Source of the DNA: Candidatus Latescibacterota bacterium
GTDB lineage: Bacteria > Latescibacterota > UBA2968
Direction of reading: 5' to 3'
Assembly (NCBI GenBank): GCA_965205975.1
Contig: OZ242195.1
Location: 4,128,001 to 4,192,000 of the forward strand
Length of the DNA stretch: 64,000 bases
Shown here: positions 2,635 through 10,443 of the stretch, piece by piece
Layout of the letters: every line of letters starts with the position of its first letter
Numbering within the stretch: the stretch's first letter is position 1
Notes under the pieces: generated by a model
Databases searched by the model: none
Seen by the model: only the letters and a program-made list of their open reading frames with translations
Told to the model about the DNA's origin: nothing
Program-made: the position numbers and the translations under genes

Positions 2635-4557
2635 TTAGTATTTAAAAATCTCATTACTGCCCGAGAGGCTGTTAAGAGTAACCCTTTTATCCACTGGGTT
2701 CTTAATACCCTCAACTCGCCATCGCTCTAACGCAAAATTCACATATCTTTCCTCGTGTAGATCGAGAAATCTCGTATAGACTAAGTACCAATATTTCCAT
2801 GTCTTATTCTTCCGCTGTTCGTTGTTTTCTATCTCTTCCTGCGCTTGATCGAATAAATCTATCAACTCTCGGATCATCCGCGTATCCGGAACTTTTTCTG
2901 TGTTTCTAAAGTACTCCGTAACTTTTTCTTCGGGTGTTTTTTTTCCCATGCTTAGGTTTATAGATTCTTTGAGCAATATAAAATTTCCAAGGCGCCTTTT
3001 ATTTCTGTCAAGATTACCTTTGTCATTAATTCTCTTTGTATCTGCAACAGCCCAGATGTGTTCTAAGTGATAAAAGTCATTGGGATGTTGAGGATCTCTC
3101 TCAGCCAGATATTGCTCTAATTTTTCCTCTCTTCCCTCCTTGCGTTCCAAATTTCCCTCATAACTTGCCAGAAAGTATTTCAGCCATGACCAGTGATAGT
3201 AGTCTCCTGATTCATCTATATCTAAAGTCAGATTTTTGATCAGGTTTTTGTCTTTGGCATTATTATTTACAAATTCGCGCAATCGTTCTTCCAGCCATGA
3301 TGCATTGATCAGCACATCATCACGAGTTTTTGAATGATGGTTATAGAAATCGTGAGCCAACTTAAAAAGTTCTCCCTGTCCAGAATCAGTCCGGGAGGCA
3401 ATACCTGTTCCGTAGAATCGAAAGTTGAGTTTTTCAACCAATTCCAATAAAGGTACTCTCGTTGAGGCCTCAGTCTCGCGGTTAAATATTGCAAGAATCA
3501 ATGGCAACACGGATGCCAAGACAGGTTGATGCCCAAGACGAGTCAGGCATTCCTTTTCTTTATCTTCAGTTACTCCTTCTCTTGTGTAAAGTTTCTGATA
3601 CGTAAGTGCTGTTTTTTCGAGAAATGCGACGAAATCTTCGAGCCGCTTCCTGTCATTCCCTGTGGTGGGGAACTGATCTTTCAGGTTGTCATAGACGTTG
3701 AAGCTTTTGTTTTTAGTAGCGTCCTGAAATACGATCCAGCAGTTACGAAGGAATCCATTTTCGTCATCGTTGGATGTGTGATTGCAGCGATTAAGGTGTT
3801 CTAATATTTCTGACCACTTGTCATCCACAGCCTTTTTTAAGTCCTGAATGTCATTCTTTTCCGAATAGTACATAAGATAATTTTTCACTTTTTCCAATTC
3901 GCTCAGTGGTTTCCCCCGGTTATTGATAACTTCGAACATGATGCCTATTTCTCTCGTGTTATTAGGGGCGTACATTAGGAATCCGAGTTGGTTTGTAATA
4001 TATTCATAGATTTTAGAAAGAGATATTCCATTTTTAGGTTGAAGCCATTTCTTAAACTGATCAAATGCATCAACAATGTTTTGATGTCCCTTATTTTTAA
4101 CTTTTCCACTGGAGTCTGAGTCAGGTTCCTTAACCATATCCCAAAATAGGTTATCTTGTTCATTTGATAAGGCAAATTTGCGACAGGTGTTTCCGTGTTC
4201 GCTCCCTTCTTCAAGAAAGTAACGTCTCAAATCCTCTGGTTCCGGAATATTCCTTCGTTCACAGACATGAGCCATGCAGGACAAGAGAATTATCAGGGTT
4301 GCCAGTCGCTGTTGACCATCTACTATTTCGAAGTGGTCATTATCCTGAATTGAGTCTTTCTTGACTGCAACCAATGTGCCAGTATAGTGGCTATATCCCC
4401 CGTCCATTCCATATTCTATATCTTTGATTAAGTCTTTGCGCTGGTCTTCCTCCCATGAGTATCCGCGTTGATAGGCAGGGATACTGAATGATCTGTTTCC
4501 CTCAGCGAAAACCTGCTTCAATGTGAGTAATTCAAGACGTTGTTCAATGGTGAACAT
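2635..4557 (-). CDS. DUF262-DUF1524 (GmrSD/SspE-like) modification-dependent restriction endonuclease
   Basis: IPAYQRGYSW, IVDGQQRLAT, FEVINNRGKPL (DUF262); LEHIWA..LGNFILL..IN (DUF1524 HNH-like); GGAGG RBS; AT-rich. Confidence 0.88.
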   Translation of the reverse strand: MFTIEQRLELLTLKQVFAEGNRSFSIPAYQRGYSWEEDQRKDLIKDIEYGMDGGYSHYTGTLVAVKKDSIQDNDHFEIVDGQQRLATLIILLSCMAHVCERRNIPEPEDLRRYFLEEGSEHGNTCRKFALSNEQDNLFWDMVKEPDSDSSGKVKNKGHQNIVDAFDQFKKWLQPKNGISLSKIYEYITNQLGFLMYAPNNTREIGIMFEVINNRGKPLSELEKVKNYLMYYSEKNDIQDLKKAVDDKWSEILEHLNRCNHTSNDDENGFLRNCWIVFQDATKNKSFNVYDNLKDQFPTTGNDRKRLEDFVAFLEKTALTYQKLYTREGVTEDKEKECLTRLGHQPVLASVLPLILAIFNRETEASTRVPLLELVEKLNFRFYGTGIASRTDSGQGELFKLAHDFYNHHSKTRDDVLINASWLEERLREFVNNNAKDKNLIKNLTLDIDESGDYYHWSWLKYFLASYEGNLERKEGREEKLEQYLAERDPQHPNDFYHLEHIWAVADTKRINDKGNLDRNKRRLGNFILLKESINLSMGKKTPEEKVTEYFRNTEKVPDTRMIRELIDLFDQAQEEIENNEQRKNKTWKYWYLVYTRFLDLHEERYVNFALERWRVEGIKNPVDKRVTLNSLSGSNEIFKY

Positions 4558-4752: not shown

Positions 4753-4779
4753 CAAAAGGGGATTATATACAATAGTGCC
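4753..4779. repeat. Left copy of a 27-bp imperfect inverted repeat flanking the 233-aa gene
   Basis: caaaaggggattatatacaatagtgcc matches the reverse complement of 5514-5540 at 24/27. Confidence 0.85.
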
Positions 4780-4792
4780 CAAAAATTACCCA

Positions 4793-5494
4793 TCACTCTC
4801 GTATATACCGCAGAAACACACTTCCGTCCCTATCATCTAACCACTCCTCAAGACTTGTCCCATTCAAAACACTTACAGGAACATCTCTCCATTCCTTCTT
4901 GCTAAAATTCCTGTAACCCATATACTCCAACATACCAGACGCAGGATAATGAACATTTAAAATCTCTACACTACCATCATAATCCTCATCAAAAATGAAC
5001 GGACGACCACTAACACGACTAAAAATATCTCCCGTAATACGCCCCAACCTCGCAGACCCCATATAACGCTTTTCATAGAGAGAATCCATATATATTGTAT
5101 ATGCGCGGCTCTTGCCACTCAACGCACCACGCGGAACAATCAAAACAGAATCTTGATCAGACTCTACACCCAAGTCTGCGACAACACGACCAAACACCTC
5201 TAAATCCATGACCTCAGGCTTCCCCTGATGAACAGTTCCTTTATTGACAATAAAAAAACTTTCCTCTCTCCTAACCCTCCCTTCCCTATCTTTCCAACGA
5301 CCCTTCAGGGAGATAATAAAAAAACTTGACCACAACTTTAACTTTGCCAACAACTTCGCATGTCGCTTTCTCTGCTCCCGACGGGGAATATTGCCTCCCG
5401 TAATATATCTCGAAATCATCGCACAATCATACGTCTCATTGTGTTCCACAATCCGAGATAAACCCTCCAACATCAAACCAGAACGACTATCCAT
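4793..5494 (-). CDS. Hypothetical protein, phage SAM-lyase-like motifs (paralogue A, 233 aa)
   Basis: CAMISRY..RKRHAKL..LKGRWKD..REESFFIV..GVESDQDSVLIV..SRAYTIY; ATG at 5494 follows a GGGGG RBS-like run; clearly paralogous to the 5549-6592 product. Confidence 0.6.
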   Translation of the reverse strand: MDSRSGLMLEGLSRIVEHNETYDCAMISRYITGGNIPRREQRKRHAKLLAKLKLWSSFFIISLKGRWKDREGRVRREESFFIVNKGTVHQGKPEVMDLEVFGRVVADLGVESDQDSVLIVPRGALSGKSRAYTIYMDSLYEKRYMGSARLGRITGDIFSRVSGRPFIFDEDYDGSVEILNVHYPASGMLEYMGYRNFSKKEWRDVPVSVLNGTSLEEWLDDRDGSVFLRYIRE

Positions 5495-5513
5495 AATATA
5501 ACCCCCAATAATT

Positions 5514-5540
5514 GGCACTATTTTATATAATCTCCTCTTG
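5514..5540. repeat. Right copy of the 27-bp inverted repeat
   Basis: ggcactattttatataatctcctcttg; reverse complement of 4753-4779 at 24/27. Confidence 0.85.
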
Positions 5541-5548
5541 GAAGCATC

Positions 5549-6592
5549 TCAATCGAACAGCAGATAAGAGTCTGTTTGCGCCTGGTATAAGGGTTTCAGT
5601 TCGTGTATATACAGGCCAACGTGCTCAGAAATAATCCACAGATCATTTGGGCGATCCAGCCTGCCACTTAGAAACCGCACCGTGTAAACGTCATCATCCT
5701 GGTAATACGTAATATAGCAAGAAGATGCACCATTCGTTGCGCTCGGTGCCATTGGTAACAACATCCAGAAGTTGCCATACCAATCTACACCATAGCGTTC
5801 ACCTTTTGCACCCATCAGGCGATACAGGTTATCCCGCCCGCCAAATCCATTCATAGCCGTTTCTATAAAGTCATTTATATCGTCGTCACAGGCAACATAC
5901 TCGGGAATCTCCTGAGATGGGATGTAAAACTCACGACGCGGTTCTCTTTTAGCCTGAAGAGAAAAACCGGATAAACAAATTTCTGTTTCTTCCCAGTCTT
6001 CTTGTCCCAGTCGGTGAAAAAAATCAAGACCCATATTATTTGCGGCGTCCCTATGTTGTGTGACAGCCTTTATTTTTTTTATTGAATCGGCGTCTCTGCC
6101 ACCAACGCGAGCAAAAAAGGCTTTAATCTCCCTGTTTATAAGCGTCCGACCAAAGAACTTTTTCTCCTTATTTAACAATCGCAAAAAATTGTGCTCGCAC
6201 GTATTGGTACGGGCATAATATGCCCGACTCTTACCCCTACCTTGCAGCGCACCTTTCGGAATAATCAGAACAGCATCTTGTTCAAAACTCTCCCCAAAAG
6301 AAATGATATTCTCGGCAAACTGTTCACTGCCATGATAATTGAGAACAAAAAAAGTTCTCTCCGAAGAATCCTGCCCACCATCCCTGAATTGACCCAAAAC
6401 CGATATCGCGCGGTAACGCCTGCTCATCAGTTTGTATAACAAATTGGTGCTTCGCTGTAAGTTTTCTCTTTTGGTATATCTCTTGCCCTGCCCACAATCT
6501 CGTGCTGTGCGATATGCCGAAATGAACGCACAATCATGTTGGTTGTCGTACGTGAGAAAGCTATATAGCTCTGATTCCATAAAAAAATCCAT
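5549..6592 (-). CDS. Hypothetical protein: N-terminal SAM-lyase-like domain plus C-terminal phage/MGE-type domain (paralogue B, 347 aa)
   Basis: CAFISAYR..ENLQRS..VLGQFRD..SERTFFV..GESFEQDAVLII..SRAYY; AAAGGA RBS before ATG 6592 (alternative start 6607). Confidence 0.62.
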   Translation of the reverse strand: MDFFMESELYSFLTYDNQHDCAFISAYRTARDCGQGKRYTKRENLQRSTNLLYKLMSRRYRAISVLGQFRDGGQDSSERTFFVLNYHGSEQFAENIISFGESFEQDAVLIIPKGALQGRGKSRAYYARTNTCEHNFLRLLNKEKKFFGRTLINREIKAFFARVGGRDADSIKKIKAVTQHRDAANNMGLDFFHRLGQEDWEETEICLSGFSLQAKREPRREFYIPSQEIPEYVACDDDINDFIETAMNGFGGRDNLYRLMGAKGERYGVDWYGNFWMLLPMAPSATNGASSCYITYYQDDDVYTVRFLSGRLDRPNDLWIISEHVGLYIHELKPLYQAQTDSYLLFD

Positions 6593-6625
6593 GATCTGTC
6601 CTTTCATAATTGATTCCGTCCCTGA

Positions 6626-7432
6626 TTATGCCTGCTCTGGCGTCATCATCACGGCAATGTCTTCTGGCAATTTCACATCATATTTCTCCTCAAATTCCTC
6701 AACATTTTTGTAATTCTCACAAAATCTCCTGATAATATCCATACCCTTGCTCTTGACAATTGTCAGATCTGCTCTGGCGTTATACCATCTGCCCATGCGT
6801 AACCACGTTTCACCGCGGTAATAATAGGCCACAGTGTAATCCGGGTATAATTCTATGGCCTTGTTAAAATCTTCAATAGCACAGTCATACGCGCATTTAT
6901 CCCTGTAAATTTTGCCACGATAGAAATAGGGGTCGGGATTATCCGGATCCAGTTCCATAACCGCGCTGTGGTCTTCCAGAGCCAGGGCACTCTCACCTTT
7001 AAATTCGTAACAAAAACCACGCAGATAATAGTATATTTGGTCGTATGGGTTTAGTTCTATGGCTTTGGTGAAGTCCTCAATACCCTGGTCAAGGTCGCCT
7101 TCATCACTGTAAGCATTGCCGCGATTGAAATAGGCGTCAGGATCATCCGGGGCTATTTCCATGGCTTTATTGAAGTCTTCTAGAGCCAAGTCATCCTCGC
7201 CTTTATATCTATAAGTCTTGCCACGATTGTTATAGGCTTCCACATAATCCGGGTTCAGTTCTATGGCCTTATTGAAGTCCTCAATACCCCGGTCATAATC
7301 GCCTTTATCGCTGTAAACACTGCCGCGATTGTTATAGACTGTCGCATCAGTCGGGTTCAGTTCTATAACTTTGGTCAGGTCTTCAATGGCAGGGCCATTC
7401 TCGTCTCGATCAAAAATATCTAAAATATCCAT
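6626..7432 (-). CDS. Tetratricopeptide repeat protein
   Basis: About six 34-aa repeats of the form AYxNRGxxYxxKGxYDxAIEDFNKAIELNP; AAAGGA RBS before ATG 7432. Confidence 0.93.
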   Translation of the reverse strand: MDILDIFDRDENGPAIEDLTKVIELNPTDATVYNNRGSVYSDKGDYDRGIEDFNKAIELNPDYVEAYNNRGKTYRYKGEDDLALEDFNKAMEIAPDDPDAYFNRGNAYSDEGDLDQGIEDFTKAIELNPYDQIYYYLRGFCYEFKGESALALEDHSAVMELDPDNPDPYFYRGKIYRDKCAYDCAIEDFNKAIELYPDYTVAYYYRGETWLRMGRWYNARADLTIVKSKGMDIIRRFCENYKNVEEFEEKYDVKLPEDIAVMMTPEQA

Positions 7433-7452
7433 GACTTGTCCTTTCGCAATGG

Positions 7453-10332
7453 TCAGAAACCTGTCGGGTTGTTGCCGGGTTTTATGCGGCATTCCTCGGT
7501 GAGTGCCTGTGAAATTTGTTCGGGATCGTCCATGAAGCCCAGGACCTCTGCGCGCTTCCGCACGTTGGCAAAGTCCGCGGGGGTGAGTTTGGTCAGCGCG
7601 AGTGCCGAAGACGGTGCTTTGCAGTTGAAAAACAATTCAAAGGCGCGGTTAATGCGCGGTTGGTCCAAAAAGTAAAACTGGATGCGAAATAGGAAGCGGC
7701 GTGCGGATGCCTCGTCGAGGCTGTCTCCCCGGTTCGTGGTGCAGGCAAATGGGAGGGGATGCCGCTCCATCTGGCTGAGCAATTCGTTGACCATGCTCAC
7801 TTCCCAACTGCGTTGGGCAGATTGACGGTTCATCAGAAGCGAATCCACTTCGTCGAAGATCAGAAATGCGTTCTTCTCAAGTGCCGCGGCAAAAGCAGAG
7901 GCAATCTGTTCCTCGGTTCCTCCGACGAATGCGTTCAAAAGATCGGATGCCCGTTTGCATAACACATCCATCCCCATCTGCTCGGCGATGTAGTGTGCAA
8001 AAGCCGTTTTGCCCGTACCGGGAGGACCACACAAGCAGAGCGAGAACTGGCGCGTATCAAGCCCGATGATCCGCTCGACCAGTGTCGGGAGATCCTTATC
8101 TGCGTGGATAAGGGCCGGGTCGTATTGTGCAATGGGCAGCATGTCGGGAGAACGCACGCCATAGCGCAGTTTTTCTTTTTGATCGATGTTGCGCTTGATC
8201 GTCTCACTGAGTTTGTGTTTGGTCGCACAGGTGGAATGATCTCGCACGAGAACAGCCTGTTTGGTCGCTAAAGTGACCTGGCGAGGGGTCACTTTGTTTT
8301 TATGTGCCAGTTCTTCGGCCAGTTGTCTGGTCTCGCTGTCTGACATACCCGCCTGGCGCAGGATATCCGCATAAACGGTTTCTCGGCTGCGAACAGGTAT
8401 GTGGCGAAACTCAATGGCGTATAGAATGCGGTCGATGAAGAACGACTTAAACATGCGGTAGAACTCAATTGAGTTACACGTCCAGATAATGGGCACCGGG
8501 TTCGCTTCGACAATGCGGTTCAGCCAGTGTTTTTGCGGCTGGCGAAAGTCTTCCATCTCATCAAAGAGAATCGCGGCATTTGGTTCGTCTGCCAAGGCTT
8601 CGAGGGCATAATCCAATGTCTCTGTGCGGCCTGCACTCAGGCGTGCCTGTGGACCGATTTCATTTTCCCCGATGGCGTATAAACGCGCGCCGACCTCGCC
8701 GCAAAGGGTGCGCGCAAACTCGGTTTTGCCAGTGCCCGGCGGTCCGTACAGGAGGATATTGATCCCCTTCTCTTTCTTCTCTATCACTGCGGCAAGGGTA
8801 TCTCGCACAGCGTCCGCATCTTGTCCGAGGTGTGAAAATGCCGCCCACGGAACCTTTGCCTCGATGGGTGGTCCCAGGCGCGGACGGGCACTGTGTGTGG
8901 CGATGGTGCGTTCCAGCCGCTCGCAGAAGTGGTAAATATCACGCTCGCCACCACCGATGAGGCGGGTGTTTTCGATAGCTTGTGCCAGAAGACCAGGAGG
9001 ACACTCGAGTTGATCGACCAGACGCCGCGCGCATGCGACCGCATCAATGCCCTCGATATTGCTTTTTTCCAACATCTGTTGCAGAATTGCGGTTTGGCGG
9101 GTCGGGCTGTGAGCTGTGAAGGTGAGGATATAGGTGAAACGCCGCAACATGCTTTCGTCTAAGTGATCCAGACGATTGGCTGTATAGACCACGGGCACGG
9201 GAGTATTTTCCAGCAGGCGGTGGTTCATCAGGCGGGTGCCCCGGATGGAATCCAGAACGTCCTCGGCCTCGTCGCACAAGATCGCGGCATCGGGAACGGA
9301 TCGTAAGAGAACTTGAGCCAGGTGCAACTGGTTGCGGCGTCTGGTGCCAGCCTTGGCCGCGCTATCGAAAGGTTCCTGATCTTCCCGGTTCGGCTCGCCG
9401 ATGGAAAAGAGGGATGTGCCGGCCGCCTGCGATAGGGTTTTGGCAAATTCGGTTTTCCCGGTGCCTGCCCGCCCAACCAGCAGGATATTGACCCCCGGCG
9501 TAGATAGGTCTTTGTGCCGCCTTTGCACAACTGCGCGAAGCAGGCGCACGGCCTCATCCCGATCCTCGAGGTATGCGAAGTCGCTCAGGTGCAGCGTGGC
9601 TTCGCAGGGCTGACCGACCAGACGCGCCACCAATTCATCCAGATCCCGTACGGGCGGATGCCATACGCGGGAAAAATATTTATGTGTGTAGTCGGTGGGA
9701 TCAGTGCGATTAGAGCGCAGATCTTCCAGGTCAGTAATACCCGCATCGGCCAGTTCGCGGAACGCATCCTTGACTTCTTCGCACGCGCAACCCAACAAGA
9801 TCGCAGTCGCTGTGAAATGGTCATGGATATCAGAGAACTCATCCCACAGGTTTTGGGTTAGAGAATCACAGTCATAACAGCATCTCAGGGTGAGTAGGGC
9901 GTGAGCTACGGATCCTAAAGAAAAACGCTGAACAATGAGACGGGTTGCTATCTCTTCAGGGGAAGGTGCGGGCTGCTGTTGTGTTTTCTCTTTAAACGTT
10001 TTTACCGCGTAGTCGAAGAATTGGTTTTGCTCTGGCTGATCGTCTTCCCGTTTTCTCTTCCTGTCAAATATCCTGTCGTACTCCTGTAGGAGAGAAGGGT
10101 CCAGTGTTTCCAGAGGATCATTATAGTGTCCGATCCAGTCGTGTATTGCCTTTTGCACCCGTCGATCCCTCTTTACTTTGCCAAGTGCGTTCAGCATGTA
10201 GATGCGGTTCATGTACAGGCTGTATTCATTGATGTATAGACTATCTTCATTGTCAATCATGGGTAGAATCTCCTTTCGTGTTCTGCGCCTCATATGCCTT
10301 ATAGCGATGCGACTCCTACGACGGTATTTCAT
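7453..10332 (-). CDS. AAA+ ATPase with three AAA modules
   Basis: Walker A GRAGTGKT, GPPGTGKT, GPPGTGKT; Walker B ILCDEAE, ILFDEME, LIFDEVD; arginine-finger motifs LDESMLRRF and LDEASARRF; GGAGG RBS at ATG 10332, second RBS at ATG 10260. Confidence 0.9.
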   Translation of the reverse strand: MKYRRRSRIAIRHMRRRTRKEILPMIDNEDSLYINEYSLYMNRIYMLNALGKVKRDRRVQKAIHDWIGHYNDPLETLDPSLLQEYDRIFDRKRKREDDQPEQNQFFDYAVKTFKEKTQQQPAPSPEEIATRLIVQRFSLGSVAHALLTLRCCYDCDSLTQNLWDEFSDIHDHFTATAILLGCACEEVKDAFRELADAGITDLEDLRSNRTDPTDYTHKYFSRVWHPPVRDLDELVARLVGQPCEATLHLSDFAYLEDRDEAVRLLRAVVQRRHKDLSTPGVNILLVGRAGTGKTEFAKTLSQAAGTSLFSIGEPNREDQEPFDSAAKAGTRRRNQLHLAQVLLRSVPDAAILCDEAEDVLDSIRGTRLMNHRLLENTPVPVVYTANRLDHLDESMLRRFTYILTFTAHSPTRQTAILQQMLEKSNIEGIDAVACARRLVDQLECPPGLLAQAIENTRLIGGGERDIYHFCERLERTIATHSARPRLGPPIEAKVPWAAFSHLGQDADAVRDTLAAVIEKKEKGINILLYGPPGTGKTEFARTLCGEVGARLYAIGENEIGPQARLSAGRTETLDYALEALADEPNAAILFDEMEDFRQPQKHWLNRIVEANPVPIIWTCNSIEFYRMFKSFFIDRILYAIEFRHIPVRSRETVYADILRQAGMSDSETRQLAEELAHKNKVTPRQVTLATKQAVLVRDHSTCATKHKLSETIKRNIDQKEKLRYGVRSPDMLPIAQYDPALIHADKDLPTLVERIIGLDTRQFSLCLCGPPGTGKTAFAHYIAEQMGMDVLCKRASDLLNAFVGGTEEQIASAFAAALEKNAFLIFDEVDSLLMNRQSAQRSWEVSMVNELLSQMERHPLPFACTTNRGDSLDEASARRFLFRIQFYFLDQPRINRAFELFFNCKAPSSALALTKLTPADFANVRKRAEVLGFMDDPEQISQALTEECRIKPGNNPTGF

Positions 10333-10443
10333 GGGCAAAACCTCCCTTCGCTCTAATTCGATTTTTCTCCTTTATCTTTTATGATCTGACCTTACGCAAT
10401 CAACCGCCCCCGCTGTGTTTTTTGTGTTACAAATGAAAATTGA

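Follow-up and report, generated by a model that had tools for sequence, protein, structure and literature searches.

Tandem homologues of phage SAM lyases in a defence hotspot of a Latescibacterota chromosome

SAM lyases are known as phage weapons, as in T3 and Svi3-3, and in bacteria they serve in SAM-AMP clean-up for CorA-linked type III CRISPR systems. The available text of 10.1101/2023.02.27.530186 describes the T3 SAMase as a monomeric barrel and Svi3-3 as a trimer, and reports T3 E68Q/Q94A as inactive. In Svi3-3, according to the available sections of PMC7877911, residues G56, E69 and Q104 bind the ligand and E69Q nearly abolishes activity. The Y58F change lowers activity about fivefold, and the Tyr is not among the strictly required residues (same sections). 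The CRISPR SAM-AMP lyase structurally keeps only the Glu and the Gln (PMC12255297, available part).

We analyzed a stretch of 64,000 nucleotides of a Candidatus Latescibacterota chromosome (hereafter the window) in which a preliminary description had proposed tandem paralogues with T3 SAMase-like motifs. Two intact, co-oriented open reading frames are indeed present, and their cores of about 210 residues are 28% identical over 227 columns (E 4e-19). The quoted motifs occur in both translations and keep the same order in profile alignments to T3. The features of the locus are as follows.

2635-4557, minus strand: GmrSD-type nuclease (type IV restriction, HEC-06-like), variable defence cargo downstream
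4758-4779, plus strand: IS1595-family terminal inverted repeat, left end of the cassette
4793-5494, minus strand: gene A, intact open reading frame with ATG start, 233 aa
5514-5535, minus strand: IS1595-family terminal inverted repeat, right end of the cassette
5549-6592, minus strand: gene B, intact open reading frame with ATG start, 347 aa
5552-5920, minus strand: C-terminal domain of B, about 120 aa, alpha/beta
6626-7492, minus strand: TPR-repeat gene, directly upstream of B
7453-10338, minus strand: triple-AAA ATPase gene

The order of transcription is triple-AAA ATPase, TPR, B, A and GmrSD, with a sulfatase and RmuC as flanks. Against a GC content of 0.51 for the whole genome, the AAA gene stands at 0.55, A and B at 0.43-0.44, and the set formed by GmrSD, A, B and TPR at 0.40-0.44. 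The starts of B (6582-6610) and of the TPR gene (7422-7450), comprising the ribosome-binding site and first codons, have 29 nt in common (83%), and from this sequence likeness the start signals of B may have been taken over from the TPR gene. In one relative, P0019, a TPR remnant is fused to B. A promoter scan of the locus was uninformative (12 sites against 7.3 +/- 2.3 expected, no terminator), and a single RNA run had a 0.05 share of sequence words in common with this DNA. For two runs labelled sponge metagenome the share was under 0.1, which says nothing about habitat. Adjoining the hotspot, at 215-1291 of the window, lies a fusion of an alpha/beta hydrolase with a SAM hydroxide adenosyltransferase C-terminal domain (PF20257).

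To place the two proteins in a family, we compared them with Pfam and with family profiles. PF23780 (S-AdoMet_lyase) has a cut-off of 28 bits. B exceeds it with 32.5 bits (E 9e-8); A, at 15.5 bits (E 0.017), stays under it and joins the family through the family profile (E 2e-51). Among the aligned relatives 38 out of 39 match PF23780 at E<=0.01, and the T3 0.3 protein (from KC960671) matches the family profiles at E 6e-5 and 2e-6. The profile alignment places T3 E68, Q94 and D95 at E77, Q114 and D115 of A and at E78, Q105 and D106 of B; the ribose-packing Gly and aromatic positions (Svi3-3 G56 and Y58) are G65 and W67 in A, and G67 and F69 in B.

The AlphaFold models (pLDDT 85 for A, 79 for B) have a beta-alpha-beta-beta-alpha-beta core of the PII-like/ferredoxin-like type. 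Foldseek, the check proposed beforehand, ranked the Svi3-3 and T3 lyases first for both models, at an E-value of only 0.011. When the models were compared with 48,161 chains, the T3 SAM lyase 7ock_L was the best match of both (A: Z 9.3, rmsd 3.6, 135 aligned; B: Z 9.0, rmsd 4.2, 132 aligned) and the sole chain at Z>=8, and Svi3-3 reached Z 5.6-6.4. Superposition on the SAM lyase fold had been set in advance as the point on which the assignment hung, and both models superpose. The SAM-lyase assignment is thus upheld by PF23780 for B, by the relatives, by the alignment to T3 and by the predicted folds. On these profiles and models, A and B are almost certainly homologous to phage SAM lyases and of the same fold. 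Because the T3 SAMase is monomeric, Svi3-3 is trimeric and the T3 match is better, both proteins would be better read as T3-type. A sequence search of the PDB with B returned nothing at E<=10, and a search with the family profile returned the T3 SAMase only at E 1.6. CRISPR SAM-AMP lyase structures are absent among the fold matches listed, which carries no weight either way; the same holds for a homotrimer prediction of B residues 5-205 with SAM (score 0.00, with controls that did not fold).

In B, a SAM-lyase core at about residues 5-205 is followed by the C-terminal alpha/beta domain. This domain, the IS1595-type ends around A and the defence-hotspot context were absent from the preliminary description. 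The domain matches a phage family of unknown function, phrog_9437, weakly (E 0.027; E 4e-4 in the relative P0018). It has only two close homologues, and its best fold match (Z 7.3) is within the chance range. No match in the Atlas, no phage record and no second copy in the genome were found for it.

The family is carried by 5 of the 132 genomes of the class, with profile and Pfam in agreement, and the close relatives with B are Latescibacterota. The family counts 3,315 representatives at E<=0.001, among which there may be more distant lyases. It is mostly viral: its viral carriers comprise 76 IMG/VR loci and 11 phage records, with MW805361 and OQ508957 as examples of cultured phages that have it, and in the nearest three Atlas clusters 74-92% of the few recorded members are viral. 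A peptide pattern searched in 185,579 species genomes occurred at 11 loci, four in Latescibacterota and seven elsewhere; by eye, these seven were three phage contigs, two contigs that were too short and two that look chromosomal. We built a quick tree, rooted at the midpoint, from 99 rows of the 203 core domains; the remaining 104 were the context-free domains that resemble the host proteins least. In this tree a branch with SH-aLRT 96 separates the A-types, the B-types, the G031 copy and two context-free proteins from all 35 viral rows. The distribution suggests a single capture from phage. Two Bradymonadales-type genome bins also hold family members with non-phage neighbours (L099 7863-8522 and L098 836-1477), possibly a second, separate host capture.

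For 3 of the 11 A-type relatives, the contig has exactly the same size as the contig of a B-type protein, which suggests that the A-B pair recurs in relatives. The A-type proteins (n=10) are 49-82% identical, with 56 of 212 ungapped columns invariant. A search for A-type loci in JGI metagenome contigs gave 53 pattern matches, none of them confirmed.

Many members of the family have a distinctive N-terminus. A Glu precedes an SSLSR-like helix in 84 of 104 rows (median position 11), and the residue two before that Glu is Leu, Ile, Val, Phe or Met in all 84. The cleavage rule of the phage head protease is Leu/Ile-x-Glu. In T4, the head protease cuts a capsid-targeting sequence of about 10 aa off the internal proteins (PMC9958956, available part). 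By analogy, this sequence pattern suggests that phage members may be packaged in virions and injected with the DNA. Phage members are often in tandem or fused to another domain, and nearby open reading frames start similarly (L008-L083, L094, L095). Among the host copies listed, all 11 A-types and 9 of the 11 B-types retain the N-terminal Glu, which may reflect ancestry alone.

The genes around B are those of a defence hotspot. In all five lyase-bearing genomes, a triple-AAA homologue lies <=5 kb upstream of the lyase gene. The AAA-TPR-B block occupies the same site in this genome (G000), G012 and G015, and the content downstream varies. It consists of A and GmrSD here, GmrSD and HEC-01 in G012, and Mza-, Pbe- and DndB-like genes in G015, as judged by matches to the GmrSD/HEC-06, HEC-01, Pbe, Mza and DndB models. 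No PADLOC model matched A or B. In another genus the lyase gene comes after a WYL-AAA module, intact in G031 and frameshifted in G048, where an upstream HTH gene runs into the lyase frame by a frameshift or deletion and the lyase N-terminus is broken (L087 8941-10030). The AAA gene occurs in 19 of 61 relatives, and 14 of these 19 have no lyase match, so the genes form no fixed system. In many relatives a WYL and triple-AAA module heads variable cargo regions (L108-L119), and this genome holds a second triple-AAA copy at C1:3976622-3979372.

Across the three genomes, dN/dS of B is 0.18-0.24, and B is under purifying selection. Its dS (0.17-0.29) is close to that of the neighbouring housekeeping ALS gene (0.22-0.28), which, together with the position of B at one chromosomal site in three species, fits long vertical descent. 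A PHROGs scan of the 38 long open reading frames of the window at E<=1e-8 found no head, tail, terminase, integrase or lysis family, and no integrase, conjugation or prophage genes were matched among them. The CRISPR locus of this genome lies outside the window; both results agree with the preliminary remark that neither CRISPR nor prophage genes are present here. HsdR_N is matched 11 times in the genome, 7 of them in frames >=991 aa, and PglZ once.

We tentatively read A and B as phage SAM lyases that were domesticated by the host, are regulated, and are used by the host in its conflict with phages; here we infer both activity and role. T3-type SAM lyases form a large phage family, one member of which would have been captured by a bacterial lineage and duplicated. 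The captured lyases would then have been retained as accessory cargo of an anti-phage defence hotspot of the form AAA-TPR-B-(A)-variable defence genes. B would bind SAM or a SAM-derived sulfonium in a T3-type pocket, where Glu78 and Gln105 would hold the aminoacyl end while the carboxylate attacks the gamma carbon, yielding MTA and homoserine lactone. Many type I systems on which this genome relies need SAM, so this activity would probably be on only during stress or infection; with the 11 HsdR_N and the PglZ matches, a constitutive SAM lyase would undercut the cell's own defences. With SAM drained, an infecting phage would lack the methyl donor it needs to protect its DNA by methylation, and the infected cell would be slowed, while nucleases that do not depend on SAM, GmrSD among them, would keep acting. 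A, the more divergent of the two, would be an optional partner whose activity is weak or changed.

Several points count against this reading. No characterised member was found in the subfamily with the 200-aa core. A phage SAM-AMP lyase does not cut SAM, so close folds differ in substrate (available part of PMC12255297), and the available text of 10.1101/2023.02.27.530186 reports no anti-BREX effect for the Svi3-3 and Orf1 lyases. A loss of SAM would disarm the type I systems and PglZ, and one of the two other-genus copies is frameshifted (G048). We regard as unlikely the more specific idea that B is an anti-phage effector that drains SAM on infection, gated by AAA-TPR or by the phage head protease, with A as a mobile add-on that tunes or blocks B. 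Gating by the head protease is raised by the N-terminal Glu of most host copies, which resembles the head-protease site of the phage members. If such an effector exists, SAM would join the metabolites depleted by defence systems.

The surroundings of A raise the possibility of another beneficiary. A 27-nt inverted repeat (89%) brackets A exactly, delimiting a cassette of 778 bp (4758-5535) that contains only gene A and no transposase. Its ends, of about 22 bp, are of the IS1595-family type and presumably fit the ISNwi1 subgroup. The end motif was found in 23 of 53 genomes of the order and 19 of 20 of the genus (reversed control, 0 matches; viral contigs, 0), and it lies where core genes give way to cargo of lower GC. 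Of nine loci with facing ends, six are flanked by an exact 8-bp direct repeat; the A cassette, where 6 of the 8 flanking letters differ, and two others have no such target duplication. In G020, a 4,717-bp element has ends of the same motif family that are identical to each other, an 8-bp duplication and a PF12762 IS1595 transposase. A 4,940-bp element with such ends in G016 also holds an IS1595 transposase, and plain IS1595 copies in G017 start with the same first letters as the cassette ends. The PF12762 transposase is present in 13 of 20 congeners; this genome has no match. A sits in a non-autonomous IS1595 cassette, and its duplication would have been lost through an adjacent deletion, or the cassette would have arisen by capture in place. 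IS1595 relatives with 8-bp duplications, 25-bp ends and passengers (available part of PMC5704250) and transposase-free IS1595 cassettes, or MICs (available parts of PMC5704250 and PMC3129680), have been described. A is missing from the same site in G012, in G015 and in a contig of run X6; the frames of A and B are intact here in two sequencing runs.

Other origins of the ends were considered. No strand-changing joint that would mark A as an invertible switch appeared in contigs of runs X1 and X3, although contigs drop rare forms, and the idea was given up because IS1595 termini explain the ends. In view of the 8-bp duplications of sister cassettes and the IS1595 transposase, a promoter, dif, REP or IS6 ends were no longer considered. 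Across the genus, IS1595-ended cassettes with 8-bp duplications carry unrelated passengers (methyltransferase-HNH, HNH, FRG-domain and unknown proteins). Examples of IS1595-ended cassettes, and further end pairs in this genome, are listed below.

L166 1289-6228: IS1595-ended cassette
L168 1154-2928: IS1595-ended cassette
L169 1178-4774: IS1595-ended cassette
L170 1205-2856: IS1595-ended cassette
L171 1198-4108: IS1595-ended cassette
L172 3442-4393: IS1595-ended cassette
L211 2626-7342: IS1595-ended cassette
C1:2122441-2123392: end pair in this genome, with duplication
C1:1688471-1689999: end pair in this genome, without duplication

Such a setting would suit anti-defence cargo: by lowering SAM in a newly entered host, the lyase would let an arriving island or cassette evade type I restriction or BREX, to the benefit of the mobile DNA and not of the cell. 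This is the known role of the T3 SAMase (in the parts of the sources available). The IS1595-type cassette around A, the GC content of A and B (below that of the genome), a host rich in type I systems and the patchy distribution agree with it. However, the window has no matched prophage, integrase or conjugation genes among its long open reading frames, B stays at one site in three species with a dS like that of the ALS gene, and the sister cassettes hold methyltransferase-HNH, HNH and FRG proteins, which are more like defence cargo. We consider cargo of this kind unlikely, and domestication for host defence remains our preferred reading.

Whether that reading extends equally to both proteins depends on their active sites. 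All 10 A-type and all 10 B-type proteins have the catalytic Glu and Gln, and 19 of these 20 host proteins have the Gly. We compared the host proteins with 105 other members of the family (16 from viral contigs, 1 from G031 and 88 without context). The Tyr position is Phe in B and Trp in A, residues found there in 13 and 4 of the 105, respectively. In all 10 A-type proteins Ile takes the place of the near-invariant Arg (103 of 105 others) and Gln that of the Asn (96 of 105), and the Glu that 100 of 105 others have two positions after the Tyr is missing. All 10 B-type proteins keep the Arg and Asn. The preliminary description had proposed that the Tyr change may alter activity. This is only partly borne out: the Svi3-3 Y58F protein is only about fivefold down, and Phe or Trp occurs in 17 of the 105. 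The stronger signs of altered activity are those in A. Because B keeps the Arg and Asn, it looks like a plausible enzyme; A, which replaces both and is without the Glu two after the Tyr, looks like an altered one. B is probably active on SAM.

The substitutions in A also bear on a non-catalytic role or a changed substrate. In that case the pocket would act as a sensor or decoy that binds SAM, MTA or a different adenosyl ligand, or else the protein would bind a partner, on the model of the T3 SAMase binding MetK. A is the likelier candidate: besides these replacements it has a long stem in the quick tree (1.46) and falls under the Pfam cut-off. A TPR gene adjoins, and a catalytically dead T3 SAMase still acts through MetK binding (available text of 10.1101/2023.02.27.530186). 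Against this stand the Glu and Gln, which do not vary in either host group although the sequences diverge by about 50%, and the Arg and Asn of B in 10 of 10. For the pair, we rate such a role as improbable.

A decaying phage relic without function is very unlikely. It would account for the patchy distribution, the frameshift in G048 and the absence of A from the site in G012, G015 and the contig of run X6, but the dN/dS of about 0.2 largely refutes it for B, and the 56 of 212 invariant columns of the A-types and the frames intact in two runs argue against it for A.

The genome does have a type III-B (Cmr) locus with Cas10, outside the window and about 640 kb from A and B. This locus (L130 3900-15762; G000 C1:3479899-3491761) carries a fusion of Cas_NE0113 with a sigma54 activator and a Cas_APE2256 protein; beyond the array lie a TPR-primase (AEP-TOTE) gene and then cas1-like and cas2-like genes. 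We take Cas_APE2256 and Cas_NE0113 to be CARF-type effectors. CorA had no match in this 98% complete single-contig genome (the control matched in 13 of 14). It is thus extremely improbable that A and B are SAM-AMP lyases serving this type III system in trans: they have the fold family in common with such lyases and the genome has Cas10, but the Cmr locus is distant, carries the Cas_APE2256 and Cas_NE0113 proteins, and comes without CorA.

We favour host use in phage conflict over anti-restriction cargo, a non-catalytic role, a relic and SAM-AMP clean-up. The fold and chemistry are already known, and Pfam labels many relatives automatically. A bacterial clade that is under selection, independent of CRISPR and located in a defence hotspot would give SAM lyases a third setting and would exemplify the domestication of an anti-restriction enzyme by a host. 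Around it are a large, unstudied phage subfamily that looks virion-packaged and a genus-wide IS1595 cassette system that moves accessory genes. Neither CRISPR-independent chromosomal SAM lyases nor SAM depletion as a defence was found in the literature covered, which takes in a minority of subscription journals, and the available parts of PMC12839542 and PMC11724313 do not describe such a clade.

Among known systems, the IS1595 transporter IS and MICs (MTnSag1, tISCpe8) resemble the A cassette in their inverted ends of about 22 bp and their passenger gene; they differ in the 8-bp target duplications that the sister cassettes share and the A cassette lacks, and the A cassette has no transposase. 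The type III-B CRISPR SAM-AMP lyases and candidate AcrIIIB4 (available part of PMC12255297) are like A and B chromosomal, set among defence genes and equipped with the same Glu and Gln, whereas A and B have no linkage to Cas10 or CorA. Svi3-3 (PDB 6ZM9, 6ZNB) has the PII-like core and the equivalents of G56, E69 and Q104, but it is a trimer with shared active sites, and A and B fit the monomeric T3 barrel better. T3 gp0.3 (PF23780; PDB 7OCK, 8BB1) differs from A and B in several respects: they are chromosomal and outside a prophage, their core of about 200 aa has extra helices, the Tyr is Phe or Trp, B has an added C-terminal domain, and the MetK-binding N-tail of T3 is unaligned. Even so, A and B share with it the fold over about 130 residues, past the PII core to model residue 180, and keep its E68, Q94, D95 and Gly.
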